The position numbers and the translations under genes were made by a program. Positions 22,441 to 37,817 of a DNA stretch of 64,000 nt are shown here, piece after piece (position 1 is the first letter of the stretch; every line of letters starts with the position of its first letter). Source of the DNA: an uncultured Nitrospiraceae bacterium (GTDB taxonomy: Bacteria > Nitrospirota > Nitrospiria > Nitrospirales > Nitrospiraceae). The notes below the pieces were generated by a model. That model did not search any database. It saw only the letters and a program-made list of their open reading frames with translations, and had not been told where the DNA came from. Location of the stretch: positions 224,001 through 288,000 of the forward strand of contig CAWJWJ010000002.1 of NCBI GenBank assembly GCA_963846575.1, in the 5' to 3' direction.

Positions 22441-22459
22441 GAAGTTGAGAATGGTAGTC
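22441..22459. promoter_or_regulatory. Fur-box-like site upstream of bfr genes
   Basis: GAAGTTGAGAATGGTAGTC, 11/19 match to GATAATGATAATCATTATC; shares GAARTTGAKAA with the sites at 28759 and 36623; TTGACA at 22480-22485. Confidence 0.6.
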
Positions 22460-22598
22460 AAATCTACGTAACTTAAGACTTGACAACACCCACCCGTTCT
22501 TCATACAGATACTCATATGAGTAGGGGTGTCGAGGCGACGACTGGGCAATGAGGCCGGTCGCGCGGCCATAACGGGTGCTCTCGGAAGGAGGGAAGCG

Positions 22599-23075
22599 AT
22601 GAAGGCTAAGCAGGGGGTCATCGAGCTGCTGAACAAGGTGCTCACGGCGGATCTGACCGCTATCAACCAATATTTTGTGCATGCCAAGATGTGCTCGAAT
22701 TGGGGCTATGACCGATTGCATCACCATGTGCGGCAGCGTTCGTTCGATGAAATGAAGGATGCTGAGGAATTGATCGAGCATATCCTATATCTGGAAGGCG
22801 TCCCGAATTTGCAGCGCATGAACACGGTGCATGTTGGAGAAACCGTGCCCGAACAGTTCAAGGCGGACCTGAAAGCCGAACAGGAGATGCTGAGCCTCTT
22901 GAGTGAAGGCGTGGTGCACTGCACAAAGGTGGGTGACTTTACGACACGCCATATGTTTGAAGACATGGTGAAGGATGTCGATCAGCATATCGATTGGATC
23001 GAGACCCAGATGGAGACGGTCAAGCAAATCGGTCTTGAAATGTATTTGGCTGAGCAGATTAAGAAGGAAAGCTAA
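22599..23075 (+). CDS. bfr: Bacterioferritin subunit, heme-binding type
   Basis: Colinear with E. coli Bfr numbering; Met52 kept, ferroxidase ligands altered (E18D, H54D, E127V); ATG 22599 after AGGAGG. Confidence 0.93.
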   Translation: MKAKQGVIELLNKVLTADLTAINQYFVHAKMCSNWGYDRLHHHVRQRSFDEMKDAEELIEHILYLEGVPNLQRMNTVHVGETVPEQFKADLKAEQEMLSLLSEGVVHCTKVGDFTTRHMFEDMVKDVDQHIDWIETQMETVKQIGLEMYLAEQIKKES

Positions 23076-23082
23076 CTGAATT

Positions 23083-23562
23083 ATGAAAGCGAAAGCAGGG
23101 GTCATTGAGTTCCTGAATCAGGTTTTGAAGTCGGAATTGACGGCAGTGCATCAATATCTACTGCACTCTGCCATGTGCAAAAGTTGGGGGTATGGACGGC
23201 TCCATGAGCATTTTCAACACCTTGCCAATGAGGAGGTCGGCCATTCTTCTGGTTTGATCGATCATCTTCTCTATCTCGAGGGGACTCCTGATGTCGCGCA
23301 TCTTGATCAGGTCAGCGGAGGGAGCACGGTGGCGGACCTGTTGAAGGCGGATCTTGAATTCGAGCGTGAGGATGTGGAACTGCTTCGGGAGGCTGTTGCG
23401 CACTGCTCTAAGGCGGGCGATTTTACGACGCGGCATCTGTTCGAGCACATGATCATCGATACCGAAGAACACATCGACTGGTTCGAAACACAGCTGCGCA
23501 CGATCGACCAGGTGGGACTGCCTGCCTATTTGGCCGAGCACATTAAAGCCGACAAAAATTAA
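23083..23562 (+). CDS. bfr: Bacterioferritin subunit, ferroxidase type
   Basis: E18, E51, H54, E94, H130 kept; Met52 replaced by Val; position 127 is Thr. Confidence 0.93.
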   Translation: MKAKAGVIEFLNQVLKSELTAVHQYLLHSAMCKSWGYGRLHEHFQHLANEEVGHSSGLIDHLLYLEGTPDVAHLDQVSGGSTVADLLKADLEFEREDVELLREAVAHCSKAGDFTTRHLFEHMIIDTEEHIDWFETQLRTIDQVGLPAYLAEHIKADKN

Positions 23563-23809: not shown

Positions 23810-24319
23810 CTAGGCCGGACGGTGCTGCTGCGCCCGAAATCCAAGAGGCGAGTGCCCGGTGGCACGTTTAAAAAAATGGCTGAAAGCGATTTGATTCCTG
23901 AACCCCAATGCCACCGCAATTTCCGATACCGTGTGTCCGGTGGTGGCCAATAACATTCCGGCCTGTTCGACACGTTGCCGTTTGACATAGCCAGAAAACG
24001 ATTCCCCCATTACTCTGTGAAAAAGGCCGGAGGAATACTTTTCCGAGTAGCCCAGGAAACGCGCCAAAATTTTGAGTGTGATCCCCCTGTTGAGATTCTT
24101 GCTGATGTACCGGGCGATGGTCTCGGACAGCGCGTCGCCCGCGGGCGGGGTCTCTCTTTCCTGCTCCAGCGAATTTTCCAGATTGAAGAGAAGGCACACA
24201 AGGTTGAGCAAATCCTGTTTCGAGCGGGCTTGGCTGATACGGTCGGCCCAGTGGGGCGCATGCGGTCGGAGTTCCGAGGAGAGTGCTTCCAGTCGAGCAA
24301 GGGGAATGATTGGAGTCAT
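23810..24319 (-). CDS. Short AraC-family transcriptional regulator
   Basis: Double HTH: ITLKILARFLGYSEKYSSGLF...VSEIAVALGFRNQIAFSHFFKRATGHSPLGFR; ATGA overlap with HD-GYP gene. Confidence 0.85.
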   Translation of the reverse strand: MTPIIPLARLEALSSELRPHAPHWADRISQARSKQDLLNLVCLLFNLENSLEQERETPPAGDALSETIARYISKNLNRGITLKILARFLGYSEKYSSGLFHRVMGESFSGYVKRQRVEQAGMLLATTGHTVSEIAVALGFRNQIAFSHFFKRATGHSPLGFRAQQHRPA

Positions 24320-25173
24320 CGTTTGGCCGTTCGTGAGAAGTAAAGGTTGCTATCTCGTTGCTTCGGGGATTCGTGAGAGGCCGTTCTCGTGCTCTGAGCG
24401 GGCCCTCGGGTTGCCTGGGGAAGAAAGGAAAACTGGTTGAGTGCTTGCTCGTCGAGTAAGCGGCTGAAGGTTGCGAGCAGAGCCGGGTCGAATTGTGTCC
24501 CTGAGGATGCACGAAGAGTTCGCAGCGCAGCGTCAAGCGACTCCGATCGACTGGCGATTGCGTCGAAGCTGTCCGCGATGGCAAGGATTCTGGCTGCTAG
24601 AGGAATGTAGGTGCCCCGGAGTCCATAGGGGTACCCTGCTCCGTCCCAGCGCTCGTGATGATGAGCGATGAGCATTGCCGACTCAGAGAGAAATCGATAG
24701 GGACTCAAGAGTGCCGCACCCGCACGGGGGTGGCTCTGGACAAGGACATATTCTTCCAAAGTTAGAGACGAGGCCTCGTCGAGAAGCCCGGCGGGGAGGG
24801 TCAAGAGTCCAATGTCGTGGAGAAGCGCCGCATACTGTAAGGAGGTCACCTCTTCGTCGGTCAAACCGACCGCATGAGACATGACCTCAGCATAGTGGGC
24901 CGTACGTTCTCCGTGACCCACATGGTCGGGGAACGACGCTTCGAGTTGTCGTGCCACATGTCTGAGTTCCTGCAGCCGGACCTGCTTCAGCAGTTCATCA
25001 GGCAACCGTCGCTCATTCAGAGCCGTCAGCTGTGACGCGATTTCCCGCATGAGGTCTATGGTGCAGTTAGGGGCTTCTCTCGAAGTCAGCATAAGTAGGT
25101 TCCCCGGAAAGGCAGAGCCCGAGAACACTGTTGTGATCTCGGGCTCTGGGTGCAAACCTCTGGCCGCAGTCAT
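24316..25173 (-). CDS. Stand-alone HD-GYP domain protein
   Basis: GHGERTA, LLHDIG, QSHP, HHERWDGAGYP, IADSFD, GTQFDP; exact start uncertain. Confidence 0.88.
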   Translation of the reverse strand: MTAARGLHPEPEITTVFSGSAFPGNLLMLTSREAPNCTIDLMREIASQLTALNERRLPDELLKQVRLQELRHVARQLEASFPDHVGHGERTAHYAEVMSHAVGLTDEEVTSLQYAALLHDIGLLTLPAGLLDEASSLTLEEYVLVQSHPRAGAALLSPYRFLSESAMLIAHHHERWDGAGYPYGLRGTYIPLAARILAIADSFDAIASRSESLDAALRTLRASSGTQFDPALLATFSRLLDEQALNQFSFLPQATRGPAQSTRTASHESPKQRDSNLYFSRTAKR

Positions 25174-25201
25174 AACCGGAATTAAATGTTTCGTTAGGTC
25201 A

Positions 25202-25717
25202 TCAGTGCTCTGTGCGCTTCCCCGCCATTAGGGGTTGTTTGAGCACCCACATCTCATAGATGGGGATCACAAACATGATCAAAAAACCGACTGTCATGAA
25301 CGTATCCCCCGTAAGCATGGTGAGGACAAAAAAAGGAGACACGTAACTGATCATCCAAGGGGAGACGAGATCCAGCATGACTCCACCGAATGAAATCCAT
25401 GTCGTAACCACCTTGAGGCGGTTACTGGTATTGGTGAGATAGAGTACGTGCACCAGGATGATGAAGACCACGGGCATCGTGAACAAGTGAAAGTGTGTGA
25501 TCTCGGCGAGCTCGCGGAATGACATGGGCTCGCCGAATGTCGCGTTGGAACCACGGTAGTGATCGGCAATGCCTTGAGGCGACAATCCGGTCATACTGTG
25601 AGCCCAGAAAAAGGAGAATGTGAAGCCGGCTAACATCAGGGCGAGGAAAAAGGTGTAGACCAACCGGATATGGCGATCCGAGTCCCGGAGGCGAAAACGA
25701 GAGTTAAAATTGCGCAT
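25202..25717 (-). CDS. Four-TM inner-membrane protein with histidines H40, H53, H75, H77, H90
   Basis: Four hydrophobic segments; ADHYRG and ELAEITHFHLFTMP...LVH; 12 bp from the FMN-binding gene. Confidence 0.8.
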   Translation of the reverse strand: MRNFNSRFRLRDSDRHIRLVYTFFLALMLAGFTFSFFWAHSMTGLSPQGIADHYRGSNATFGEPMSFRELAEITHFHLFTMPVVFIILVHVLYLTNTSNRLKVVTTWISFGGVMLDLVSPWMISYVSPFFVLTMLTGDTFMTVGFLIMFVIPIYEMWVLKQPLMAGKRTEH

Positions 25718-25729
25718 CTCGGGTGAGGC

Positions 25730-26407
25730 TCAGTTTCCAAAAATAGATTTGAAGAAGCCCTTCTCGGATTTTTGGGCTGTAATAGTGTCGCTGCCTTGAC
25801 CCATGGGTTTGAGGTAAAACTCATCGACGAGCACTAACACTCGTTTAATTCCGGCGCTCATGGAACGGACAGACATGGTGGCTCCGCTGATATTGATGAT
25901 ATCTTTATTAATTCGCACCGGATCCAATACCGATTTGCCTTCGTATTGTGAGTTAAAACGCTTTGTCCGTACCTCGCTCCCACGTGCTTCCCGGAAGATG
26001 AGGAGCTCAATATTCGAGACGCGGCCTCGAGCATCCACCCCGACCATATATGTCATGGGCTTGTGTTTGCCGATGGTATTCTGTATGAAGGCATAGCCAT
26101 CGACGTGCCCGCCGGTCTCGCCAATATACACATCAAATGCTTCCTCGGGAAACTTCCAGCCGATTCGGTCTTCGATTACCGATTTCTTGTCTATCGGAAC
26201 CTGTAGCTGTTCCTTTCTGATATGTCCGGACTTCGGAAACATCAGTTTAACTGCCTCATCCTCTGTCAGGTATACTTCGGCCATCAGCATTTCTTGATCG
26301 GTTAAATAGCGCTTGAGCTCGCTATCCCAAACGCGCTCTGCAAACACTTCGACCGGAGATAGCGCGAAGACTATTATCAGCCAGATAATGAGCGGTAGAG
26401 CCTTCAT
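25730..26407 (-). CDS. Exported FMN-binding-domain protein (ApbE flavinylation substrate)
   Basis: Signal peptide; TIGKHKPMTYMVGVD..G.V..IE, F.SQYEGKS and the flavinylation motif ISGATMS (Thr177). Confidence 0.88.
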   Translation of the reverse strand: MKALPLIIWLIIVFALSPVEVFAERVWDSELKRYLTDQEMLMAEVYLTEDEAVKLMFPKSGHIRKEQLQVPIDKKSVIEDRIGWKFPEEAFDVYIGETGGHVDGYAFIQNTIGKHKPMTYMVGVDARGRVSNIELLIFREARGSEVRTKRFNSQYEGKSVLDPVRINKDIINISGATMSVRSMSAGIKRVLVLVDEFYLKPMGQGSDTITAQKSEKGFFKSIFGN

Positions 26408-26868
26408 GTGGGCACACAGCCTTGTTCGGTTAGCTTTGCGTTGATTCTATCGATGATTTGATTCGTGGCCTCTTCCGATGGTTCTGCGGGCCACCATTTG
26501 GTGGCTTGTGACGTCGCTCCGCCGCGGGCGTGCCATCGCTGCCGGGTTTCCAAGACACTTACAGAGGCCACGTCGTTCGTTCGCTTCACGGCCACGCTCA
26601 TGCGGGCTCGTTCCCTATTCCCAAAGCCTTCGCGGCTAAAGATTCCAAACGATCGCTCTGAGAGAGGTGCGACATCCATCCATGCACCTTCGATCAGCCC
26701 TTTGCCCTTGTCGGACGAAGCAACGGATTGCCCCTTCATGGTATCGAGTGCGGCATCCCATACCACGTCATAAGAGCACACATAATATTGGTCCCGGCTC
26801 CCGCTCAGGGCGGCGCAGCCAGACAAGAGAATGGTAAGAGCTGTTACTGCAAGGCGTGAGGTGCGCAC
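26404..26868 (-). CDS. Lipoprotein of unknown function
   Basis: GTG at 26868 after AAGGAG gives MRTSRLAVTALTILLSGC (lipobox LSGC); ATGA overlap with the FMN-binding gene. Confidence 0.78.
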   Translation of the reverse strand: MRTSRLAVTALTILLSGCAALSGSRDQYYVCSYDVVWDAALDTMKGQSVASSDKGKGLIEGAWMDVAPLSERSFGIFSREGFGNRERARMSVAVKRTNDVASVSVLETRQRWHARGGATSQATKWWPAEPSEEATNQIIDRINAKLTEQGCVPT

Positions 26869-26893
26869 GGCGTCTGCTACTCCTTGTAATTCG

Positions 26894-26926
26894 GAGCGAT
26901 CCCTCCCTAGGAGAGAGGGATCGCTC
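26894..26926. other. Perfect 12-bp intercistronic hairpin after the porin gene
   Basis: GAGCGATCCCTC-N9-GAGGGATCGCTC; no U tract. Confidence 0.7.
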
Positions 26927-26935
26927 GCGTCGAGG

Positions 26936-28411
26936 CTAGAAATACGTTGCTGCTGAAAGCACAACTGCACTGTCGTGAATTCGTTCCCCGGTATTCGGAT
27001 TAAATGCCTTGGGCATGTACTGATAGCTGATCTTAAAGACCGCATCCTCGACGGGGCGATAATTCAGGCCGAAGGAGATTTGCTCCAACTCTCCCTGATT
27101 TTCGCCGCGATTATCGCGGTTTAAATTTACGCGGTCATACCGAACCACAGCCGTGAATGTGGATCCTTCTCCAAATCGCCTCGGTGAAAATTTAGACAGA
27201 AACGCCGGCATGAAGTGGTAGTTGCCTTGGACGTAGAACCCTTGCATTCGCTGCGGAGGGGCAGCAAATGAGTTCAATGTGTTCAGACCACTCAGCAACG
27301 TGCCAGGGGTTTGGAAAGTTGCACCTTGAATTGCACGAGAGTTGCCTCTCGAATACGCCCAAGCCGCTTCGCCGATAAGCTCGAACGGCCCCCGTTGAAG
27401 CGTCCAGTCTACTGCTGCGATGCTCAGTGGGTTGTAACTGGTGGGAGATGCATTCCCGAAGTAGCCGGACCCTGCGATCTCGACGCCGAGCATAGGGCTG
27501 TAGGCCATGCGACCGGATACAGCTTTGCCATTATTAATGTCAAAACCGTCATCTGATCCACATTTGCGTTGACGGGAATTCTTTGTGCCGTTCTCCTCAC
27601 TGATACGTGGAGAGCCATCTTGATTGTAACCGCAAGGACCTGTGGTCACATAGAACTCATAGTCCAACTTGCTCGTGCGGCCCGGATAGAGGGTGCCGTA
27701 AAACCCAGCGCCCGTTTCGGACATTGTTGACGGGATGATCAAGCGGCTGACAATTGGCCGATCGGTCAAATCGTTCAAAGGCGAGTCATGCAGCAAGTTA
27801 AATTTGCCGATGGGAATCAGCAAGATACCTGCTCGGATGTTAAAAGGTTCATTTACAAGATAGTCGATATGGGCGAACTCCAGGCTGATTTCGTTGTCAC
27901 TGGTCCCTCTAATCCCATGCTCGATTTCGATTTCAGAGGCAAACTTCACATGCTCCGTAATGTCTGCATAAATGAAGGGCACGAAACGCTGTTGATCGAA
28001 TCCGTTCGTCGTACCATTGCCGAAGCCGCCGGTCTCTAGGACGCCTCTACGGTGCGAGCGGTACTGGATGTCCATGTAGCCGCCCACAATAGCTTTTGGA
28101 GCTGCGACGAAGGGCTTTGCGTATACGAGGCGGCCCGAACCAGTTGAACCAAAGCCCAGGGCAGGTTGTTTGTCAGCCCGTCGTTCTTTGCCTACATCAG
28201 GAAGGTTGCCAATCCCGGGTTCCTCAGCCTCTGCGATCGGGCGCTCCCGTCGCTCCATGACACCTTCCCGTCGGTCGTGCTCGTGCAACCGCTGTTCTAC
28301 TGCTTCATCTACTAACTTTTTGATTTCCTCCGGGGTCATGTTTTCCGCCAATGCCGGCATGGCCGGTAATGTAGCCAGAACGAGAGCCCCGAGGAGTGCC
28401 CGCATCTTCAT
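26936..28411 (-). CDS. Outer-membrane beta-barrel porin-like protein (491 aa)
   Basis: ATG 28411 after GGAGG; signal peptide ending ALA; short coiled coil; amphipathic strands; C-terminal SAATYF barrel signal. Confidence 0.85.
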   Translation of the reverse strand: MKMRALLGALVLATLPAMPALAENMTPEEIKKLVDEAVEQRLHEHDRREGVMERRERPIAEAEEPGIGNLPDVGKERRADKQPALGFGSTGSGRLVYAKPFVAAPKAIVGGYMDIQYRSHRRGVLETGGFGNGTTNGFDQQRFVPFIYADITEHVKFASEIEIEHGIRGTSDNEISLEFAHIDYLVNEPFNIRAGILLIPIGKFNLLHDSPLNDLTDRPIVSRLIIPSTMSETGAGFYGTLYPGRTSKLDYEFYVTTGPCGYNQDGSPRISEENGTKNSRQRKCGSDDGFDINNGKAVSGRMAYSPMLGVEIAGSGYFGNASPTSYNPLSIAAVDWTLQRGPFELIGEAAWAYSRGNSRAIQGATFQTPGTLLSGLNTLNSFAAPPQRMQGFYVQGNYHFMPAFLSKFSPRRFGEGSTFTAVVRYDRVNLNRDNRGENQGELEQISFGLNYRPVEDAVFKISYQYMPKAFNPNTGERIHDSAVVLSAATYF

Positions 28412-28545
28412 GGGTATCCTCCATCCGCGAGTTAGGGTTAGGTGTGACTCGGGACTCAAAGGTCTCTGGTCTATAAAGAAAACATGAGTATGAGATCGAT
28501 GATCTGGATGTGTGCCGGTGACGATGCCTCCTTTGCTATGTCGAA

Positions 28546-28725
28546 TCATGCTGTGACGGTGCCCCAGCCTTCGATCGAGGTGAATGGAATGACGACGATG
28601 CGTTTGCAACGTTTGCATTTCAACTCAAGCCCTTGCCCGCGAACCTTGGCGATCAGCTGCCCGCATTCGCAACGAGTCTCACTGCCATGACAGGACGGGA
28701 GCGTCGGGGGCGTCGTGTCGATCAT
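28546..28725 (-). CDS. 59-aa zinc-ribbon protein (Com-like), not in the ORF track
   Basis: Hand translation: MIDTTPPTLPSCHGSETRCECGQLIAKVRGQGLELKCKRCKRIVVIPFTSIEGWGTVTA; CxC-x15-CxxC; weak SD. Confidence 0.72.
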   Translation of the reverse strand: MIDTTPPTLPSCHGSETRCECGQLIAKVRGQGLELKCKRCKRIVVIPFTSIEGWGTVTA

Positions 28726-28758
28726 AGGTTCGGCTATTCTTCTGCTGTGGTTTTAGAT

Positions 28759-28805
28759 GAAATTGAGAACGATTATTAGTATCTCGATGGAGTCTGGAAT
28801 GTCAA
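28759..28805 (-). promoter_or_regulatory. Sigma70-type promoter with overlapping Fur-box-like site for the zinc-ribbon/porin operon
   Basis: Minus strand TTGACA (28805-28800)-N16-GATACT; box GAAATTGAGAACGATTATT (28759-28777), 13/19 to the Fur consensus. Confidence 0.72.
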
Positions 28806-28873
28806 GTCTGTTGTGCGGGTCGTTCAGGCCCTGCCGGCGTGCATTCTTGAACTGCGGTACCTATAATTAGTTT

Positions 28874-29500
28874 ATGGTTCGACATATGCTTGGGCCCGTG
28901 TGCTGGCTGGTGATGGCGCTCACAGTCTGGTTGGGCGGCCCGTCGGGGTGCATCCGGGAGGTCTCGGCCGTCGCTAATCCAGAGGCAGGTCCGACCGTGC
29001 TGGTCGTGGGGCGCGCCCTGTCAGTGATCACCGGGGACCGTTCCCGGCGGTTTGAGCCGGAAGTGCGTCGCATGGAGCTCATGCAACGCCGGACCGGTCA
29101 GCGATACCGTGTGATGGTCAAGGGAGAGGATAAAATGTTTGCCTTTTTTCTTCCGGCAGGAGACTACGACATTACGCGAGTGCAAATTAACGAAGGGCCT
29201 TTTCTGTCCATGGCGAAGATGTCCTCCTCCTTCACGCTAGGACGTGATCCTGTCGCGTATGTCGGGGACTGGCGTTTTGGAGTCGAGTCACCGCGGTATG
29301 GACGTATGATGCTGGTGTCCATGGAAGCTCAAGACGACACGCGAGAAGTCGTCGTGCGCAAGATTCGAGAGGAGTATCCTGACCTCGCCGCGGCACCCCT
29401 GACCACCGTAATCCCTTCTCCCGCAGAATCACAGACCCGGCTTTTCGAAGTGTCGCCCTATCCCCGAGTCCCCAAATATTTTCAACGCCATAACTGGTAG
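28874..29500 (+). CDS. Exported protein or probable lipoprotein of unknown function
   Basis: Hydrophobic N-terminus ending PSGC; beta-rich F.LPAGDY motif; 10 bp upstream of apbE. Confidence 0.72.
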   Translation: MVRHMLGPVCWLVMALTVWLGGPSGCIREVSAVANPEAGPTVLVVGRALSVITGDRSRRFEPEVRRMELMQRRTGQRYRVMVKGEDKMFAFFLPAGDYDITRVQINEGPFLSMAKMSSSFTLGRDPVAYVGDWRFGVESPRYGRMMLVSMEAQDDTREVVVRKIREEYPDLAAAPLTTVIPSPAESQTRLFEVSPYPRVPKYFQRHNW

Positions 29501-29510
29501 GAGGGGTTTC

Positions 29511-30542
29511 GTGCCGATTGTGAATTCCACCATCGCGAATGGTCTTATGCTCGTGCTTCTGTTGGGGACGGGATGCGCCGGCGGCGAGGTCCGCCCTACC
29601 CCGGTGGTGGTCAAGCGCACCCAGATGCATATGGGCACTCTTGTCACGGTGACGGCGGTTGCACCCAACAGGTCCGGCGCGCAAGAGGCGGCGTCCGCGG
29701 GATTTCGAGAGATCCATCGGCTGGAAGAGTTGCTCAGTACATGGATCGCGACCAGCGAAGTGTCTCGTGTGAATGCAAAGGCCGGGAGGGAGGTTGTCGC
29801 AGTCGGTGCGGATACGATGCGTCTTCTGGAAAAGTCGCTCGAAATGGCTCGATTGACGGAGGGCGGCTTTAATGTCCTGGTGGGGCCCGCCGTTGAGGCG
29901 TGGAGCGTGATAGATCGGCAGCAAGTTCCATCGGACGCGACTCTGCATGCGATTCGCCCGCTCACGGATCTGAGATCGCTGCACCTGAATCCCGAGCAGG
30001 GGACAGTCTATCTGGCGAAGACGGGTATGCGGGTGGATGTCGGCGGTATTGGAAAAGGGTATGCCGCTGACATGGCTGTCGCTGCGATGCAGAAGAGCGG
30101 AGCGACGGCGGGGGTCGTCGCCATATCCGGTGATATCAAGACGTTTGGAAGGCTTCCCGGCGGCACCAAATTTCCCTTCGGCATTCGCCATCCCCGGCGA
30201 GAGGACACTGTCCTGGGATTCATCGATCTTCAGGACGAAGCGATTTCGACGGCTGGAGACTATGAACGGTATTTCGAACGGGACGGGGTACGCTACCATC
30301 ACATTCTTGATCCGGTGACCCTGCAGCCGGCACGTGATTGTCAAAGCGTCACGATCGTCGCCCGGGATGGGATCACGGCGGATGGGTTGGATACCGGGGT
30401 TTTCGTGATGGGGCGGGAGCGGGGGCTGGCCCTGATTGAACAGTTGCCGGGAGTCGGCGCGGTTATCGTAGATCGCGAGGGAAAGGTTTGGGTCTCTTCG
30501 TATCTCGCAGGGAGGATGAGGATCAATGATGTTCGCGAGTAA
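29511..30542 (+). CDS. apbE: FAD:protein FMN transferase (ApbE family), lipoprotein
   Basis: Lipobox GTGC; MGT, SEVSRVN, DVGGIGKGYAAD, STAGDYER, HHILDP, ADGLDT. Confidence 0.95.
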   Translation: MPIVNSTIANGLMLVLLLGTGCAGGEVRPTPVVVKRTQMHMGTLVTVTAVAPNRSGAQEAASAGFREIHRLEELLSTWIATSEVSRVNAKAGREVVAVGADTMRLLEKSLEMARLTEGGFNVLVGPAVEAWSVIDRQQVPSDATLHAIRPLTDLRSLHLNPEQGTVYLAKTGMRVDVGGIGKGYAADMAVAAMQKSGATAGVVAISGDIKTFGRLPGGTKFPFGIRHPRREDTVLGFIDLQDEAISTAGDYERYFERDGVRYHHILDPVTLQPARDCQSVTIVARDGITADGLDTGVFVMGRERGLALIEQLPGVGAVIVDREGKVWVSSYLAGRMRINDVRE

Positions 30543-30909
30543 GTGGCCCGGTTGCGACCGTTTCCGCCTGTATCTGGTTGGGACGCCGTTCGAGGGAATT
30601 CGGCAGCCGAAAAGGGTATTCGGTTCGATCCTGGCTGGAGTGGTCATGCTGGTGGCCTGCAGCTCGGGCGGTAAATATTTCCAAGACGGCGTGAATGAGG
30701 CGACGCAAGCCATGGTTGGCAAGCGGTACGGCACGCCTCACAAGGTTCGCTCCTACGACGGCGGTGAAACCTGGACCTATTTCGAGCGTGGGAGTGGGAC
30801 CGCAGGGTTCAGCGGGCAGGTGCGAAGTGCTGCATGTCAGGCGTATGTCCTGACGTTCGATACGCAGACCGTGTTGCGAGGCTGGCAGAAGCAGCCTTGT
30901 GAAGGTTAG
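30526..30909 (+). CDS. Small lipoprotein, SmpA/OmlA(BamE)-like fold
   Basis: Lipobox LVAC; V...YGTP......ETWTY pattern; true start probably downstream of 30526. Confidence 0.6.
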   Translation: MMFASKWPGCDRFRLYLVGTPFEGIRQPKRVFGSILAGVVMLVACSSGGKYFQDGVNEATQAMVGKRYGTPHKVRSYDGGETWTYFERGSGTAGFSGQVRSAACQAYVLTFDTQTVLRGWQKQPCEG

Positions 30910-30920
30910 TCGGTTCCCTG

Positions 30921-31880
30921 TTACCGGCCAAGGCGGTAACTGAGGGGAATCTGAATCGTCACCGGGGATTTCTCGAGCGGCCGCGATAACGCGATCGGTG
31001 AGGCTCGACGGAGTGTGTCGAGTGCGGCCTGATCGAGGACGTCGTGCCCGGAGCTCTTTGCAATCGCGATAGAGGCGATCCTCCCGTCATCTTCGATCAC
31101 AATTCTCAGGATCACGCGACCTTCCAGATGGTTCAGTCGTGCGGAGGCAGGATATTGCTTCAGCGATTCGATTCTCTGGAGAAGGGAATCGGCGAGCCAT
31201 CCGTAGTCGGGTTTCCGGACCCCGGGGGGCGCGATCGCTGGCGAAGGTACCGACGCGACGTGCGGATTTGAAGTTTCCGGGTGAGGCGCCGCCGCTGACT
31301 CCGGCAACCGGGTGGACGGATCAACAGGAGGAGAAGCATGCGCTTCCAGCGGAGCCGGTGTCTGCTGAAGAGCAGGCAGATCCTCAGGGGTTGCCGTTGA
31401 CGGCATCCCTCCAGAGTGTGGAACGTCCGGCTCACTTGTCATCCGCTGCTGTTCCTGAACAGGCTCAGGTGTGCTCTCAGCTAAGGGCTGTCGAGATTCA
31501 ACATATTGAGGTGTGGGCTCTGAATTGTGGGGCGGATGGCCGGGAGCTGTGGTCGTCAGGGGCGGTACCGGTGCGGCTTGGGACGGTTTGACGGATGGAC
31601 TGCTGCGTGCCTTCTTAGCAGACGGGCCTGGAGGTCTTGGTTTAGGATTCTCGGGAGCAGCGGTCGCTTCGGAGGGCCCCGGCTCCCCGGTGCCGGGGTC
31701 TGCTGGATGAACAACCGTCACATCCCATTGAAACAACGGAGAGGGAGGCGCCAGGCGGATTTTAGCTACCAGGAGGCCTGCCAGGAAGATGATACCGACA
31801 TGGAGAGATAGTGAGACGATCCACCCGCTGGTCCGGAGTCGGAACAGGTCGCCGGGTATCCCGGGGTGCTGGGTGGTCAC
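30921..31880 (-). CDS. tonB: Energy transducer TonB
   Basis: TM with SLSLH, Pro-rich linker, C-terminal YPASARLNHLEGRV...SSGHDVLDQAAL. Confidence 0.92.
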   Translation of the reverse strand: MTTQHPGIPGDLFRLRTSGWIVSLSLHVGIIFLAGLLVAKIRLAPPSPLFQWDVTVVHPADPGTGEPGPSEATAAPENPKPRPPGPSAKKARSSPSVKPSQAAPVPPLTTTAPGHPPHNSEPTPQYVESRQPLAESTPEPVQEQQRMTSEPDVPHSGGMPSTATPEDLPALQQTPAPLEAHASPPVDPSTRLPESAAAPHPETSNPHVASVPSPAIAPPGVRKPDYGWLADSLLQRIESLKQYPASARLNHLEGRVILRIVIEDDGRIASIAIAKSSGHDVLDQAALDTLRRASPIALSRPLEKSPVTIQIPLSYRLGR

Positions 31881-32251
31881 AAACGCACAACCTCCAGACT
31901 CACAGATTGAAATCCCAATCCTCGTATCTCGTCTACGACTGAGACGAACCGCTCCAACATCGTCACTTTGTCGGCTCGGACGACGACCAGCGATTCACGG
32001 GGGTGCGCCAAAAGTACGGTTTTGAGGCCGTCCGCCGGTACCGGGCGATCGTTGAGAAAAAGTTCTCCCGATGCAGTCAGCGTAACCACCACCGGTACAT
32101 CTTTGCGGTCTCCGGCTTCCTTCGCTTTAGCAAGATTCACGGGGATCTGGCCGGTGCTGATGAAGGTTGCAGTGGTCAGCACGATGACGAGCAACACCAA
32201 CATCACATCTACCAGAGGAATGACGTTGATCTGATTGACCTCACGTTCCAT
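31877..32251 (-). CDS. exbD: Biopolymer transport protein ExbD
   Basis: INVIPLVDVMLVLLVI, VVRADK. Confidence 0.95.
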   Translation of the reverse strand: MEREVNQINVIPLVDVMLVLLVIVLTTATFISTGQIPVNLAKAKEAGDRKDVPVVVTLTASGELFLNDRPVPADGLKTVLLAHPRESLVVVRADKVTMLERFVSVVDEIRGLGFQSVSLEVVRL

Positions 32252-32666
32252 GTTGAGCCCTATACGTGGTCAGCAGTTCCGCCACTCGGCGCCGCAACAC
32301 ATTGTTCATGACGACGCAGGGAATGGCGACGAGCAGGCCGACGGCGGTGGCCTTCAGGGCTAGGCTCAAGCCGATCATGATGGTATTGACCGCCATCGTG
32401 CCGGAGGTCCCCATCGTGTGGAACGTCATCATAATTCCGAGCACGGTCCCCAGCAGCCCGATATAGGGGGCATTGGCGGCCACCGTGCCAATGATGACCA
32501 ACCTTTTCGTCAGCGCCATTTCGAAAGTCTGCGCATCGGAAAATTGTGACGGATCCACACGTCTATAATAGAGCCACCGCTCAACGGCGACTGCGACCGA
32601 CCACACGCTCAGTGCAATCAGGAGCCCGATAATTCCATATTCCACTGCATTTTTCAGCGCGTCCAT
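32241..32666 (-). CDS. exbB: TonB-system energizer ExbB (short form)
   Basis: NAPYIGLLGTVLGIM, LSLALKATAVGLLVAIP; ATG 32666 after GGAGG. Confidence 0.94.
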   Translation of the reverse strand: MDALKNAVEYGIIGLLIALSVWSVAVAVERWLYYRRVDPSQFSDAQTFEMALTKRLVIIGTVAANAPYIGLLGTVLGIMMTFHTMGTSGTMAVNTIMIGLSLALKATAVGLLVAIPCVVMNNVLRRRVAELLTTYRAQHGT

Positions 32667-32776
32667 TCGTCGATCCTCCACCTCTCAAGTTTTTATCTTG
32701 TCGCCCGGCGGGACATTCCATTGATTTCGGCCTTATGCCGCGGACCTGCGACGGGCCTTAGCTTCCATCGGGCCGC

Positions 32777-33925
32777 TTACGTGTCCGGACGTGAGTCGGA
32801 CGGCTGTGGAAAAAGCACCGTATGCGTGGCCACCACATGCAACGCAATGGCCGTTCCCACCTCATAAATGCTCAGGGACGACTCGCTGCTATGGATGAGT
32901 TGTCCCGACTGGAGTTGAATCGTGTAAAGATTCTCGGATCCCTTGAACTGTCTCCCCAGGATGCGGGCATTCGCTCCCTTGGCAGGGGTGATGTGAATAT
33001 CATCCGGACGAATCATGACATGTACCCTGGTGCCCGTGGAGAAATTCCTGGTGTTGGGGAATTGTCCGATTTCGGTCGTAACCTGGTCACCCGTGACGAG
33101 ACCGGAGATGAAGTCCGCTTGTCCGACAAAGTCTGCCACGAATGGGGTGGTCGGCAGGTGATAAATTGCCTCAGGGGTGTCGAATTGCTCCAATCGGCCA
33201 CGGTGTAACACTGCGATCCGGTCCGCCATGGCGAAGGCTTCGTCGTGGTCATGCGTGACCAGAATCGCCGTCGTTTTTGTTTGTCGTAGCAGGGTGTGAA
33301 GATCCTGCCGCATTCGACTGGCCATGTCAGGGTCGAGGTTGCTGAATGGTTCGTCCAGCAGCAAGAGCACCGGTCGGGGGGCCAATGCACGGGCGAGTGC
33401 GACGCGTTGCTGTTGCCCCCCGGAGAGTTCGTGCGGATAACGCTGTTCGAGGCCGCGCAACCCGGTGAGCGTGAGCAGATCATCAACCACAGCCTTCTGC
33501 TGAGAACGCGACAGATGATGGAGCCCGAAGGCGATATTCTTCTCGACGCGCAAATGGGGAAATAATGCATATTCCTGGAATACCATGCCGATGTGACGCT
33601 GCTCGGTCGGAACCAGGGTGTCACTCGAAGACACCAGCTGTCCCGATAAGGCAATGCTACCGGCGACGACCCTCTCAAATCCCGCAATTGCGCGTAAGAT
33701 CGTAGTCTTGCCACATCCGGAGGGACCCAGGAGGCAGAGGATTTCTCCTTGCTGGACCGTAAAGGTAATCTCTTCGACCGCCGGTCTGGCCGGCTCGTAC
33801 GCACAGGCAACCTCCCGCAATTCAAGGACGGGTGAATGCGTGACGGTCAGGTCGTCGGCCTCCGGCGAGGGGACTGTCGTAAGACCTGGTGGTTTGCTGG
33901 GGCTCGAGTCCCTCAAGTCATTCAC
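32777..33925 (-). CDS. Fe(III) ABC transporter ATP-binding subunit (FbpC/FutC-like)
   Basis: GPSGCGKT, LSGGQQQR, LLLDEP, TOBE tail; GTG start overlaps the permease stop (GTGA). Confidence 0.9.
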   Translation of the reverse strand: MNDLRDSSPSKPPGLTTVPSPEADDLTVTHSPVLELREVACAYEPARPAVEEITFTVQQGEILCLLGPSGCGKTTILRAIAGFERVVAGSIALSGQLVSSSDTLVPTEQRHIGMVFQEYALFPHLRVEKNIAFGLHHLSRSQQKAVVDDLLTLTGLRGLEQRYPHELSGGQQQRVALARALAPRPVLLLLDEPFSNLDPDMASRMRQDLHTLLRQTKTTAILVTHDHDEAFAMADRIAVLHRGRLEQFDTPEAIYHLPTTPFVADFVGQADFISGLVTGDQVTTEIGQFPNTRNFSTGTRVHVMIRPDDIHITPAKGANARILGRQFKGSENLYTIQLQSGQLIHSSESSLSIYEVGTAIALHVVATHTVLFPQPSDSRPDT

Positions 33926-35526
33926 GTGACGATCTCCCGCTCTTGCCCTCGCCAATCCCTGGCGACCAACAGAAGTAATGCCGGTAGGCTCAGGAGGACA
34001 ATCAGCAGGGCGGCAGGCGCGGCCAGTTGATAATATTCCTCGCTGGCTTCTAACCAGACTCGAATAGCCAGTGTATCAAATCCGACCGGGCGCAGTAGAA
34101 GGGTGGCTGGAAGTTCCTTCATGGTCTGTAGAAACATTAAGACCCACGCGGTGATACAGCCACTCTGGATCAGGGGAAGCGTGACACGCCGCAGAGTCTG
34201 GCGAATTGTGCAGCCCAATGTCCGTGCGACTTCCTCCACATTGGGCGTCACCTGTTGCAGGGCCGGCTCCATGGATTGGAGCCCGACCGGAATGAAATGT
34301 AGGACGTAGGCGATGAGCAATACGATGATGGAGCCGTACAGGGCTGGCACGAACTGGGTGAAGAGCACAAGGACGGCGAGAGCGGTGACCGGCCCGGGTA
34401 GCGCGTACCCCGCATAGGCGGCCTGAAGACAGGCGAGGTTAAGCCGCGATGGCCGCCGGCTGGCCAGGTAGGCTAGCGGGAGGCCGATCAGAACGGCCGC
34501 TCCGGCGGCCGAAGCCGACAAAAAAGCACTATTCCAGACAAAGCCGAAAAACCGCGCATCCAAGGCTCCCTGCGAAACGGCTGCCACACTCCACTGAATC
34601 AACATAACCGCGGGAATTCCGAAAGAGACCCCGAAGACGAGCATGACGTAGGCGGTCAGGAGCGCGGTCCCGAGGGGGCCTTCGCGACGACGGGCCGAAC
34701 TGCGGTATCGGCCGGAAGTCTGGTAAAAACGACTGCGTTGACGAAACCATCGTTCAGTCACGAGAAAAACAATGGCCATCAGGACGAGCAGGACACTGAG
34801 GATGCTGGCCGCGCTCTGATCGTACCGGCCGGTCATCTGTTGATAGACCGCATAGGTCAGCGTTTGGTAACGGAGAAGCGATACGGCTCCGAAATCCGAC
34901 ACGACATACAAAATCACGAGCGCAAGCCCTGCGGCAATGGCAGGACGAATCAGCGGCAGAGTCACGCGCCACAGTGTCTTCCAGGCCGGGACGCCGCAGG
35001 CTCGTGCCACCTCTTCGAAGGAGACATTGAGATTGACAAGGGCGCTTCGAGCCAGCAGGTAGACGAATGGAAAGGTATCGAGGGCCATGATGACCGTGAC
35101 GCCGAGGAAGCTGTTGGGAGAAATGAGCCTCGCATCAGGTCCCCAAAGGGACTGCCACCACTCTTCCACAGGGCCGCCCATGCCCATGAGATGGGCATAC
35201 ACATAGGCCAGCACATAGGTCGGCATGGCAAGGGGAAGCACGATGGCCCATTCCCAGATCCGGCGGCCGGGAAACTCATAACGAACCATGATCCAGGCCA
35301 GGGAGACGCCGAGCACGAGCGTGGTCATGGCTACGCTCGTGGCGAGGGAGAGAGTGTTCCATAACAGTTCGGGAATGCGCGTCGACAGGAGGCGGTGCCA
35401 TACCGCCGGGGCAGCGGTCAGCGCCGTGTAGATAATATAAATTGTGGGAAGAATCAGGCATCCGGCAGTGATCAGGCTGATCCACTGGAGGGGAGAGGGT
35501 AGGCTGAACCTCGTGGCGGTGACCAT
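33922..35526 (-). CDS. Fe(III) ABC transporter permease (FbpB/FutB-like)
   Basis: Two EAA-like loops (EEVARACG, EEVARTLG), DFGAV, MKELPATLLLRP. Confidence 0.92.
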   Translation of the reverse strand: MVTATRFSLPSPLQWISLITAGCLILPTIYIIYTALTAAPAVWHRLLSTRIPELLWNTLSLATSVAMTTLVLGVSLAWIMVRYEFPGRRIWEWAIVLPLAMPTYVLAYVYAHLMGMGGPVEEWWQSLWGPDARLISPNSFLGVTVIMALDTFPFVYLLARSALVNLNVSFEEVARACGVPAWKTLWRVTLPLIRPAIAAGLALVILYVVSDFGAVSLLRYQTLTYAVYQQMTGRYDQSAASILSVLLVLMAIVFLVTERWFRQRSRFYQTSGRYRSSARRREGPLGTALLTAYVMLVFGVSFGIPAVMLIQWSVAAVSQGALDARFFGFVWNSAFLSASAAGAAVLIGLPLAYLASRRPSRLNLACLQAAYAGYALPGPVTALAVLVLFTQFVPALYGSIIVLLIAYVLHFIPVGLQSMEPALQQVTPNVEEVARTLGCTIRQTLRRVTLPLIQSGCITAWVLMFLQTMKELPATLLLRPVGFDTLAIRVWLEASEEYYQLAAPAALLIVLLSLPALLLLVARDWRGQEREIVT

Positions 35527-35544
35527 AAGTGTTACAGGATGTGT

Positions 35545-36576
35545 TCAGCGAAGGCCGACCTGCTCGATCAGGGTGAGGGTCGGCTCCCGCAATTCCGCGA
35601 GTCGAGCGAGGGGAACCAGAGCCGCGCGGAAGGAGTGTCGGTCGACGAGGGCTGGATCCGCTTTGACGTCCGGATGAAGCGGATATTCTTTGTCAAGATC
35701 CGCAAACAGTTTCTGGCCGGCTTGCGCAACCAGAAATTCAATGAGCAGTTTGGCGCTGTCGACGTGCTTGGAGGCTCGCGTCACCCCGATTCCCGATACG
35801 TTCATAATCGCTCCCATGCCGCCCTCCTGCTGATCGGGCATGATCGCTGCGATCGGTGCGGTGGGTTGTGCGGCGAGATGACGATAAATGTAGTAGTGGT
35901 TGACGATGCCTGCCGCGACCTGACCTTTGGCCACAGCCTCTACAATCTGCGAGCTTTTCTGATAGACCTGTGTGCCGGCATTGGCCTTAAGACCCTGGAG
36001 GAATTGTTTGGTGCGGTCATCTCCGACGGTCGCCTTAATGACGGACACGCCCGCTTGGAGATATTCACTGCCGGAATTGGGAATCGCAATTTTGTCTTTC
36101 CACTGCGGTTGTGCCAGGTCAAGCAACGATTTGATCTGATCGGGCTTCACGAGGGCCGTGTTGTACGCCACAATCCAGAAGCGGCCGGACAGGCCGATCC
36201 AACTATTGTCGGATGCGCGGTATTGAGAGGGAATCGCCCGTTCAACCTCCCGCATATTCATCGGCCTCAAGAGTTTGAGTTCCCGTGCCCGCTCAAGGCT
36301 GCCGGCGTCGTTCGTAAGGAAAACATCAGCGGGAGTGCGGTCACCTTCTGCCTGCAGGCGGTTGACAAGTTCGGTCGTGCCCGAGGACAGCAGTTCCACC
36401 TGGATGCCGCTTTTCGATTGGAATTCATCCAGGACGGGTTTGATGAGGCGCTCGGCTCGTCCCGAATACACGACCAGTTTGTCGGCGGCAAGCGCGGGGG
36501 ACGAGCTGGATGGAAAGAGGCTCAGGGTTCCTAGAATGACAGTCAGGACAAGAAATGTGCGGGGAGATGAAGCCAT
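35545..36576 (-). CDS. Fe(III) ABC transporter substrate-binding protein (FbpA/FutA-like)
   Basis: Signal peptide, VYSGR, EGDRTPADVF, tandem Tyr ligands in VNHYY, EYP. Confidence 0.92.
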   Translation of the reverse strand: MASSPRTFLVLTVILGTLSLFPSSSSPALAADKLVVYSGRAERLIKPVLDEFQSKSGIQVELLSSGTTELVNRLQAEGDRTPADVFLTNDAGSLERARELKLLRPMNMREVERAIPSQYRASDNSWIGLSGRFWIVAYNTALVKPDQIKSLLDLAQPQWKDKIAIPNSGSEYLQAGVSVIKATVGDDRTKQFLQGLKANAGTQVYQKSSQIVEAVAKGQVAAGIVNHYYIYRHLAAQPTAPIAAIMPDQQEGGMGAIMNVSGIGVTRASKHVDSAKLLIEFLVAQAGQKLFADLDKEYPLHPDVKADPALVDRHSFRAALVPLARLAELREPTLTLIEQVGLR

Positions 36577-36622
36577 GCGGCATGCCTCCAGATCGTCGGA
36601 CAGCCCGCTGGCCGCCTTATTT

Positions 36623-36673
36623 GAAATTGATAAGCCGTCTCAAGATGATACTGGATGCGAAGCGGTTCGTCAA
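36623..36673 (-). promoter_or_regulatory. Sigma70 promoter plus Fur-box-like site for the Fe ABC-exbBD-tonB operon
   Basis: Minus strand TTGACG (36673-36668)-N17-TATCAT (36650-36645); box GAAATTGATAAGCCGTCTC (36623-36641), 13/19 to consensus, just downstream of the -10. Confidence 0.8.
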
Positions 36674-37101
36674 TGCCGGCAACGCGAACAAAGGCCGTAC
36701 AGTTCGAGTCGATGGGTTTGTATGACAAAGCCGTTCTTGGTGGCGACCTCTTCCTGCAACCGTTCGATCTCGCAATTTTCGAACTCCACAATGGTTCCGC
36801 AGCCGGTGCAGATGAGGTGGTCGTGATGACCCTTGTGCGAGATGTTGTCGTACTGCGTCTGGGTGCCGAAATGTCGGGCTTGGGCGATTCCGGCTTCGCA
36901 GAACAGGTTTAGGGTGCGGTAGATGGTGGCCAGGCCGAGGTGGGGATCTTTCTTGGCGAGCTGATGATACATCGATTCCGCCGTGATGTGTTCCTGTCGG
37001 AGAAATGCCGTCAGGATCAGTTCCCGCTGGCGGGTCAGCTTGAGTTGATGCTTTGCCAGGTGCTGGCGAAGCACGTCCATTTCTTTAATGGTTTTAGTCA
37101 T
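36670..37101 (-). CDS. fur: Ferric uptake regulator
   Basis: TRQRELIL, ATIYRTL, HHDHLICTGC, C-terminal CSRC; sits in an iron-uptake locus. Confidence 0.92.
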   Translation of the reverse strand: MTKTIKEMDVLRQHLAKHQLKLTRQRELILTAFLRQEHITAESMYHQLAKKDPHLGLATIYRTLNLFCEAGIAQARHFGTQTQYDNISHKGHHDHLICTGCGTIVEFENCEIERLQEEVATKNGFVIQTHRLELYGLCSRCRH

Positions 37102-37253: not shown

Positions 37254-37817
37254 GTGCGGAAACCTCATGAAATGACAATCGATAGAGCACTGCTGTTGTA
37301 CGTCTTATCGCAGGCCGAGCCCTACGGGTTGCTGAGCGATGTCAAACTCCAGCAGCTCTGTTTTCTGTGCGAACTCCAGATGTTCGGAAAGGGCGTGAAG
37401 GGGTTCCATTTTGAATTCGTTCGGTTTGCTTATGGGGCCTTCAGTCGGGATCTCGACAACGATTTGACCTCGCTTCGGCGCAAAGAGCGGGTTGAAAACT
37501 TCAGTCCCTCCGACCAGGTCCGCGATGAGGTGATTCCGCTGCTCTTGAAAGCGATCGAAGGGAATGAGACCAACGAGCAAGTGCGGGATCTTATGCAAGC
37601 GGTCATCACCACGTACGGCCCTCAGGACGTCACGGCCATTACACAATCTGTCGAATCCGTGGAATTAAGTACGCCGCAACAGCCGGACTTTAAAATACCG
37701 ATTCGCGACATTGTGTTTCACACGACGTTACTGGTTCCTGCCCGGATTGAAGTGACCACAGAATTTACGCTCCCGGCGAATTATGCCGCCAAGCTGAATC
37801 TCGGGATGGGCTACTAG
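37254..37817 (+). CDS. Panacea (DUF4065/SocA)-like domain protein
   Basis: KLQQLCFLCE...FHFEFVRFAYGAFSRDL resembles the KLQKLLY...F....YGP.S pattern; promoter-like TTGACG-N18-TATAGT at 37187-37216. Confidence 0.6.
   Translation: MRKPHEMTIDRALLLYVLSQAEPYGLLSDVKLQQLCFLCELQMFGKGVKGFHFEFVRFAYGAFSRDLDNDLTSLRRKERVENFSPSDQVRDEVIPLLLKAIEGNETNEQVRDLMQAVITTYGPQDVTAITQSVESVELSTPQQPDFKIPIRDIVFHTTLLVPARIEVTTEFTLPANYAAKLNLGMGY

Follow-up and report, generated by a model that had tools for sequence, protein, structure and literature searches.

A 64,000-nucleotide stretch of the genome of an uncultured Nitrospiraceae bacterium (assembly GCA_963846575.1, contig CAWJWJ010000002.1, positions 224,001 to 288,000; henceforth the window, whose own numbering is used below) contains, at 23810-30909, a gene module that is real, widely conserved and apparently undescribed. 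Its core comprises an outer-membrane porin, a secreted RnfG-like flavin mononucleotide (FMN)-binding protein, a four-helix transmembrane (TM) protein of the Pfam family PF27139 and the flavin transferase ApbE. The module appears to work like the iron-reducing clusters built around PepSY, MsrQ and DUF4405 membrane proteins, although it is a member of none of them, and on balance we favor its being a Fur-repressed periplasmic ferric reductase. Such a role would supply a testable function for an unstudied Pfam family and a candidate answer to the question of how the order Nitrospirales, whose nitrifiers have a high iron demand, obtains iron without FeoB.

The conserved core and its Fur-type box

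The porin, FMN and TM genes are read from the minus strand and apbE from a divergent plus-strand unit, with a Fur-type box between the two units:

26936-28411, minus strand: outer-membrane porin, 491 amino acids (Porin_O_P, 27.5 bits; 16-strand model)
25730-26407, minus strand: secreted RnfG-like FMN-binding protein, 225 amino acids (FMN_bind PF04205, 31 bits with a cut-off of 22)
25202-25717, minus strand: four-helix inner-membrane protein (TM protein), 171 amino acids (PF27139 Aq_1264_TM)
29511-30542, plus strand: ApbE flavin transferase, a lipoprotein (PF02424, 263 bits)
28762-28780, no strand: Fur-type box over the -10 end of the minus-strand promoter (11/14 core match)
28778-28805, minus strand: predicted sigma70-type promoter TTGACA-16-GATACT (10/12, a consensus match only)

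We compared 20 loci of 20 kb each around the TM gene, from Nitrospirales genomes picked across genera out of the 100 among 301 genomes of the phylum that have a TM match (labels such as L033-L091 denote fetched loci, L033-L052 being this Nitrospirales set). The porin, FMN and TM genes are present in 20/20 loci, and apbE, a zinc-ribbon gene and a first lipoprotein gene in 19/20 each. Less constant companions are fbpB (15/20), a lipoprotein gene before apbE (13/20), bfr (11/20), an HD-GYP gene (11/20), exbBD(-tonB) (10-12/20), an araC-type gene (7/20) and a third lipoprotein gene after apbE (6/20). As these genomes are kin and not independent, the counts describe the association and do not test it. 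The porin, FMN protein, TM protein and ApbE of the originally proposed composition stand as the core; judged by co-occurrence, HD-GYP, AraC, exbBD-tonB and the lipoproteins on either side of apbE are accessory, and we rejected them as part of it. Of the more remote loci in Nitrospirota, seven contain a full-length TM gene; it adjoins the FMN gene in all seven and the porin gene in six, with fur, bfr, feoB or DtxR-FeoA nearby in five. A scan of GTDB genomes gave at least 595 pattern matches, among which 15 loci were confirmed, one of them a duplicate of an earlier locus; among the matches listed, the porin, FMN and TM genes stand in fixed order in 13/14 loci of other phyla, drawn from Deltaproteobacteria, Myxococcota, Binatia, Thermodesulfobacteriota, Pseudomonadales, Methylococcales, Latescibacterota, Brocadiales and Planctomycetes. 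A preliminary description of this locus had staked its proposal beforehand on linkage being conserved in other genomes, and the neighborhood comparison found such linkage both in Nitrospirales and in other phyla.

The FMN protein resembles RnfG (9eri_G, E 2.7e-16) along almost its entire length, begins with a hydrophobic segment (residues 4-22) that is a predicted cleavable signal, and ends in Nitrospirales with a conserved, amphipathic-looking C-terminus. We confirmed the motif I-S-G-A-T-M-S claimed for it, whose threonine is residue 177 (codon at 25877-25879) and the predicted flavinylation site; across 42 FMN-protein sequences G175 and A176 never vary and at least 90% have T177. The locus thus shows two marks of an ApbE-flavinylation system, namely apbE clustered with an exported substrate, and an FMN_bind protein combining the [S/T]GA[S/T] motif with an export signal. 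These are the only FMN_bind protein and the only ApbE of the genome, so that among such proteins enzyme and substrate pair by elimination (substrates of the DUF2271 and DUF3570 types were outside this search). Moreover, gene fusions tie ApbE to both the FMN protein and the TM protein: an ApbE-FMN fusion occurs in L053, FMN-ApbE fusions in L086 and L087, and TM-ApbE fusions in 5/28 long matches scanned among 150 listed. In the L053 fusion (L053:10217-11752) the ApbE part has no evident N-terminal signal, and an Arg-rich segment, Tat (twin-arginine translocation)-like or an anchor, lies between the ApbE and FMN domains; similar segments occur in L054-L056.

The porin was modeled with 16 strands (predicted local distance difference test, pLDDT, 75). 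Its best structural match is OprP (Z 27.4, root-mean-square deviation (rmsd) 3.2, 311 aligned residues) and its only PDB sequence match is likewise OprP/OprO (E 1.2e-5). Over 39 sequences six arginines, among them R142, R193, R218, R301 and R424, are invariant, as are E160, E164, E178 and H208, and a pore with such a mixture of arginine, glutamate and histidine would suit a metal-carboxylate chelate. We considered a function as phosphate porin and set it aside: the fold agrees, but the context is one of iron.

Scored against the 7-1-7 Fur core consensus, the box at 28762-28780 matches at 11/14 positions, a value reached by none of 200 shuffled sequences, and it covers the -10 end of TTGACA-16-GATACT, much as had been claimed. 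Promoter-like sites as such are not enriched (5 versus 4.7 in shuffles). The box passes the 5% significance level in 16/19 Nitrospirales loci, and upstream of the operon one does so in 8/12 tested loci of other phyla, being borderline in L076 and L059. A site matrix built from the boxes of 12 relatives and run over the genome at a threshold of 22 bits recovered four sites, with none in a locally shuffled copy. The box in the window scores highest; another strong site precedes bfd, one lies between an araC-tonB-fecI-fecR-TonB-dependent receptor (TBDR) unit and a nonribosomal peptide synthetase (NRPS) gene, and one has no clear gene. The suggestion of a conserved module under a Fur box is therefore upheld by the retention of the box in relatives and its recurrence before bfd and siderophore genes. 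Both are expected of a Fur regulon, in which a conserved box over a promoter is common to known iron genes, with binding itself predicted.

Some further observations concern these sites. The site without a clear gene (22.7 bits; G000:C1:417054, equivalent to L090:6055) has no convincing open reading frame (ORF) downstream, though a 50-residue CxxC...CxxC ORF is found nearby at L090:6565-6717; the site is a candidate for controlling a Fur-repressed small RNA or small protein. The Fur-boxed bfd (G000:C2:2449196; L088) lies directly 3' of a molybdopterin oxidoreductase alpha/beta pair resembling nxrAB. The siderophore cluster (G000:C2:1194200-1211000; L089, L091) codes for the NRPS, a TBDR, FecIR, two TonB proteins, ExbB, a PepSY_TM protein and a second Fur. 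A weaker Fur-type site upstream of the bfr pair in the window (22444-22462, 15.5 bits) falls within shuffle noise. In the available part of an N. moscoviensis transcript table, the rows between bfrB and fur (9/9 of 088x and 12/27 of 089x-091x) do not include the module (PMC6606698).

The four-helix membrane protein

PF27139 (Aq_1264_TM) is a Pfam family with no known function that spans 1,135 clusters at 50% identity. The model of the TM protein (pLDDT 92) consists of four long helices plus a short one in a loop (residues 47-55), and the charge distribution places both ends inside. Among 104 non-redundant sequences G56 is conserved in 104, H75 in 103, H77 in 102, Y54 in 95, W121 in 92, H90 in 91 and E72 in 86, while H16, H40, H53 and H171 are not conserved. 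The preliminary description had called the protein His-rich, which overstates the matter since only three of its seven histidines (H75, H77 and H90) are conserved. Together with E72, these run along one helix across the membrane.

Informative variants of this pattern come from tandem proteins containing two copies of the domain, some of them in clusters from Aquificaceae and Kryptonia. We aligned 12 such proteins, excluding a thirteenth that is also fused to ApbE. In repeat 1 the equivalent of H75 is present in 12/12, with those of H77 and H90 in 0/12; in repeat 2 H77 and H90 are present in 12/12 and H75 in 1/12. The 12 proteins may have a common ancestor, so this split of the histidines could be a single event. 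As H75 and H77 are two residues apart, they face opposite sides of the helix, and the simplest reading of the pattern is that H75 of one subunit and H77 of its neighbor would form one site, like a bis-His heme at an interface. The complementation between repeats fits an interface site of the kind found in FezC-type homodimers, the heme in the present case being predicted. H90 lies 13-15 residues beyond H75/H77, which is the spacing of di-heme cytochromes b, and the N-terminus, of fixed length, is a candidate source of a partner ligand for H90. These features point to an oligomeric heme or metal site in the TM protein.

A second set of variants consists of ten paralogs of 240-270 residues encoded at other Nitrospirota loci (L058:2700-3482, L061:9425-10177, L066:9306-10109, L072:9851-10624 and six more), which are related to PF27139 but give no Pfam match above the cut-off. 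In all ten the periplasmic loop contains a CxxCH motif, H75 and H77 are retained and H90 is absent, and no FMN, apbE or porin match was found near them. Given the CxxCH loop and the missing FMN partner, a heme c domain appears to stand in for the flavoprotein. This would be the same modular swap of flavin and cytochrome as is described, in the available text, for other flavinylation systems (Meheust 2021, PMC8238504). Taken together with the split of the histidines in the tandem proteins, these cytochrome c paralogs indicate that the family probably serves in electron transfer, as judged from its sequences. The two variants also name the residues to mutate (H75, H77, H90, and T177 of the FMN protein), by which the idea becomes testable.

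We also considered the TM protein as a repeat of heme-copper oxidase subunit I, in view of its HFH motif. A profile comparison with 30 COX1 sequences gave no support (hhalign 0.1%, no better than the controls fbpB and exbB), and the match of the model to 7deg_D (Z 7.2, rmsd 4.1, 135 aligned) is level with generic bundles. A complex prediction with two TM copies, the FMN protein and heme scored 0.02 and is used as evidence neither way. In one case each, possibly read-through artefacts, the TM protein is fused with a DtxR-FeoA protein (P0230) and with a PilZ domain (P0211).

Proposed mechanism and competing explanations

We envisage that upon iron shortage Fur would leave the box at 28762-28780, permitting transcription of the porin operon and probably of the divergent apbE unit. 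Small Fe(III) chelates could then diffuse in through the 16-strand porin, as its fold and pore residues suggest, while ApbE, by its established chemistry, would place FMN on T177. The TM protein would oligomerize, with H75 and the neighboring subunit's H77 ligating a heme b toward the periplasmic side and H90 a second cofactor toward the cytoplasmic side, and electrons might thereby cross the membrane to the FMN protein. The reduced FMN would finally turn Fe(III) into Fe(II), freeing the iron from its ligand for import.

Several observations weigh against this proposal. The genome, which is 99.9% complete, has no FeoB (GTPase cross-matches only), FTR1, Nramp or ZIP, and across 61 genomes of the order FeoB is found in none and FTR1 in six; the import of Fe(II) is hence left unexplained. 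The importer encoded next to the module is an Fe(III)-type ATP-binding cassette (ABC) system, and the core encodes no cytoplasmic electron donor. In the loci of other phyla a recognized iron gene adjoins the trio in only 3/13 (fur, FTR1 and feoB; 74 greedily chosen ORFs scanned), and the Fur-type box was not found in L053-L055, L081, L085 and L086. No solved structure matches the TM model, the best hits (Z 8.3) being generic bundles, nor was there a Foldseek match at E ≤0.001 or a PDB sequence match. Such a lack shows neither a new nor a different fold, and because of it heme binding is argued from the sequence pattern. An earlier trans-envelope scheme for the locus stands with respect to a conserved, Fur-boxed flavinylation module, while its reduction step and electron direction remain predictions and the Fe(II) importer that it needs (FeoB, FTR1, Nramp or ZIP) was not found. 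The genome does have one VIT1 and the adjacent FbpABC, and Fe(II) would enter either by FbpABC, VIT1 or a Mg-type carrier, or else via the TM oligomer itself.

The last route leads to a reading that we regard as a minority prospect, namely that the four-helix oligomer is an inner-membrane Fe(II) channel, with or without heme, and that the module is a complete importer replacing Feo in Nitrospirales. In this order, where FeoB and FTR1 are so scarce, 46/50 genomes of one main family and 24/24 of the other have the TM gene, and a helix lined across the membrane by E72, H75, H77 and H90 would suit a metal path. In addition, for N. marina, which is reported to lack an Fe(III) ABC system, the available text proposes periplasmic reduction followed by import, with the reductase unnamed (10.1101/2020.07.02.185504). 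Yet outside Nitrospirales the trio adjoins feoB or FTR1 (L057, L060, L079, L085), next to which a further importer would be redundant; the cytochrome c-fused paralogs point to electron transfer; and a symmetric pore accounts less well than a cofactor site for the loss of one of two sites in the tandem proteins. A combination of both roles is to us a minority prospect of a similar order: PF27139 would represent a novel type of membrane cytochrome, and its oligomer would feed the flavinylated carrier and also import the resulting Fe(II). Were it true, the porin, flavoprotein and four-helix protein would constitute a self-contained, TonB-independent reductive iron importer, and the main iron gateway of the nitrite-oxidizing and comammox Nitrospirales, which are without Feo, would be one common to many uncultured phyla.

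Three other explanations were weighed, and we rate all of them low. That the flavoprotein is an iron-sparing carrier, replacing a heme c carrier under iron limitation without any part in uptake while the porin admits some other anion, seems improbable to us. It accords with the use of cytochrome c in place of the FMN partner in the paralogs, with the invariant arginines of a porin nearest to the anion-selective OprP/OprO, and with the fact that in most loci of other phyla the adjacent genes include no iron transporter; but that porin also has invariant glutamates and a histidine, the TM protein probably requires heme itself, this genome has no cytochrome c-fused paralog to be replaced, and the fixed porin-FMN-TM order in foreign loci would be left unexplained. 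A flow of electrons in reverse, with periplasmic Fe(II) being oxidized, its electrons passing via FMN into the membrane and the Fe(III) going to FbpABC or FTR1, could draw on the frequency of fbpB near the module, on the FTR1-cytochrome c in L079 and cupredoxin in L053, and on Feo not being found in the order. We nevertheless think it very unlikely, as feoB-linked loci need Fe(II), and covalent FMN domains are of low potential (-184 mV in the one example given in the available text; PMC12052999), which suits iron reduction. Finally, the box might be read by a different Fur-family regulator, with the module serving another metal or envelope redox repair. The genome has three Fur-family genes, and HupE/UreJ neighbors occur in L075 and L077, but this motif is also found ahead of bfd and of siderophore genes, the neighbors in Nitrospirota are iron genes, and it is to this explanation that we give the least credence.

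Known systems and the wider locus

The available text of two surveys of flavinylation (PMC8238504; PMC11334425) describes ten systems together with DUF4405/FezC, and links PepSY-, MsrQ- and DUF4405-type membrane cytochromes with ApbE to iron reduction. None of the systems there has the PF27139 membrane family or a core OprO/P-type porin, and the present module accordingly adds a membrane partner to that repertoire. Like the PepSY (FoxB/VciB), MsrQ and DUF4405/FezC clusters, it combines ApbE with a His-bearing membrane protein and an extracytosolic carrier, here predicted to be flavinylated; it also resembles the PepSY clusters in its iron-uptake neighbors and probable Fur control, both of which the surveys report for these. 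Unlike them, its membrane partner matches none of PF03929, PF01794 and PF14358, belonging to PF27139, in which one helix bears an HxH...H pattern predicted to be shared between subunits, and its core has a general-diffusion OprO/P-type porin with no TonB receptor in that role. Resemblance to RnfG/NqrC is confined to the RnfG-like FMN protein with the same motif: there is no Rnf/Nqr operon here, and the FMN protein has a predicted cleavable signal. The porin shares 16 strands and conserved arginines with OprP/OprO but is just 14% identical, has the additional invariant glutamates and histidine, and lies in a Fur-type and not a phosphate-type context. The P19/FTR1 (Fet) systems likewise place an FMN-binding protein in an iron-uptake cluster, and one of the foreign loci (L079) has FTR1 as a neighbor, yet this genome lacks FTR1 and the genes of the window include none of P19 type.

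The preliminary description had also noted the absence of known partners, and for several of these absence extends to the whole genome, which has no match to MsrQ-like PF01794, DUF4405/FezC PF14358, the NapH/NosR-like Fe-S membrane protein PF12801 or the FTR1 permease. Others lie elsewhere in it: the single PepSY_TM gene is part of the siderophore cluster, some 0.95 Mb distant, with no PF03929 in the present cluster, and one partial RnfD-like PF03116 match, with neither motif nor Rnf-like neighbors, is 137 kb away. DUF2271 gave no match among the proteins of the cluster, to which the search for it was confined. We found no description of the module in the literature covered, outside which lay the cluster table of Meheust 2021 and most subscription papers; that table may hold these loci as unassigned rows. 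The judgement that the composition matches no characterized system accordingly appears to hold.

The genome is of Nitrospira type, its named close homologs belonging to Nitrospira. All ten ORFs originally reported at 23810-30909 were recovered at their place and strand, with corrected starts for the porin (28411) and the first lipoprotein (GTG, 26868) instead of those of the longest ORFs. On the minus strand the reading order is zinc ribbon, porin, lipoprotein, FMN-binding protein, four-helix protein, HD-GYP and AraC, and on the divergent plus strand exported protein, apbE and lipoprotein, as had been described. Both ATGA overlaps are real, joining the lipoprotein and FMN genes at 26404-26407 and the HD and AraC genes at 24316-24319. 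The remaining genes are:

28546-28725, minus strand: 59-residue CxC...CxxC zinc-ribbon protein, the first gene of the operon
26404-26868, minus strand: first lipoprotein, 154 residues, with an LSGC lipobox (weakly DUF3576/NlpB-like)
24316-25173, minus strand: accessory HD-GYP-type protein (HD_5, E 1.7e-35)
23810-24319, minus strand: accessory AraC-family regulator (HTH_18/AraC match)
28874-29500, plus strand: accessory exported protein or lipoprotein before apbE (no Pfam or NCBIfam match, family unknown; homologs carry a Cys-bearing signal)
30526-30909, plus strand: accessory small lipoprotein after apbE (no family match above noise)
22600-23562, plus strand: context, two bacterioferritin genes (bfr; Ferritin, two matches)
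30921-37101, minus strand: context, tonB, exbD, exbB, the Fe(III) ABC genes fbpC, fbpB and fbpA, and fur (TonB_C, ExbD, ExbB, ABC_tran, BPD_transp_1, SBP and FUR)

The family matches of the last two entries bear out the bfr-bfr and fur-Fe ABC-exbBD-tonB flanks claimed earlier. The zinc-ribbon protein is weakly similar to the Com translational regulators of phage Mu (PHROG, E 3e-4 and 2.5e-3). A paralog of it is found in the siderophore cluster of the genome, as is a paralog of the AraC protein (44% over 106 residues), and proteins of this Com-like type may regularly accompany iron operons in Nitrospira. A 187-residue ORF divergent from fur (37254-37817), which also adjoins fur in L035 and L038 (71-74%), has only a weak DarG-like match (E 0.015). 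A perfect 12-bp inverted repeat at 26894-26926, read directly from the sequence, lies in the gap between the porin and lipoprotein genes and could stabilize the porin portion of the mRNA.

Across L033-L052 the porin and first lipoprotein occur as two subtypes that vary together, with identities to the proteins of the window of about 40-55% (porin) and 37-41% (lipoprotein) in one and 68-88% and 53-81% in the other. The identity of the TM protein stays at 69-93% while these subtypes switch, which suggests that the outer-membrane part is exchanged as a cassette. The first lipoprotein, whose identity follows the subtype of the porin, is a likely partner of the latter. The set zinc ribbon-porin-lipoprotein-FMN is present twice in L036, and L043 has an additional porin.

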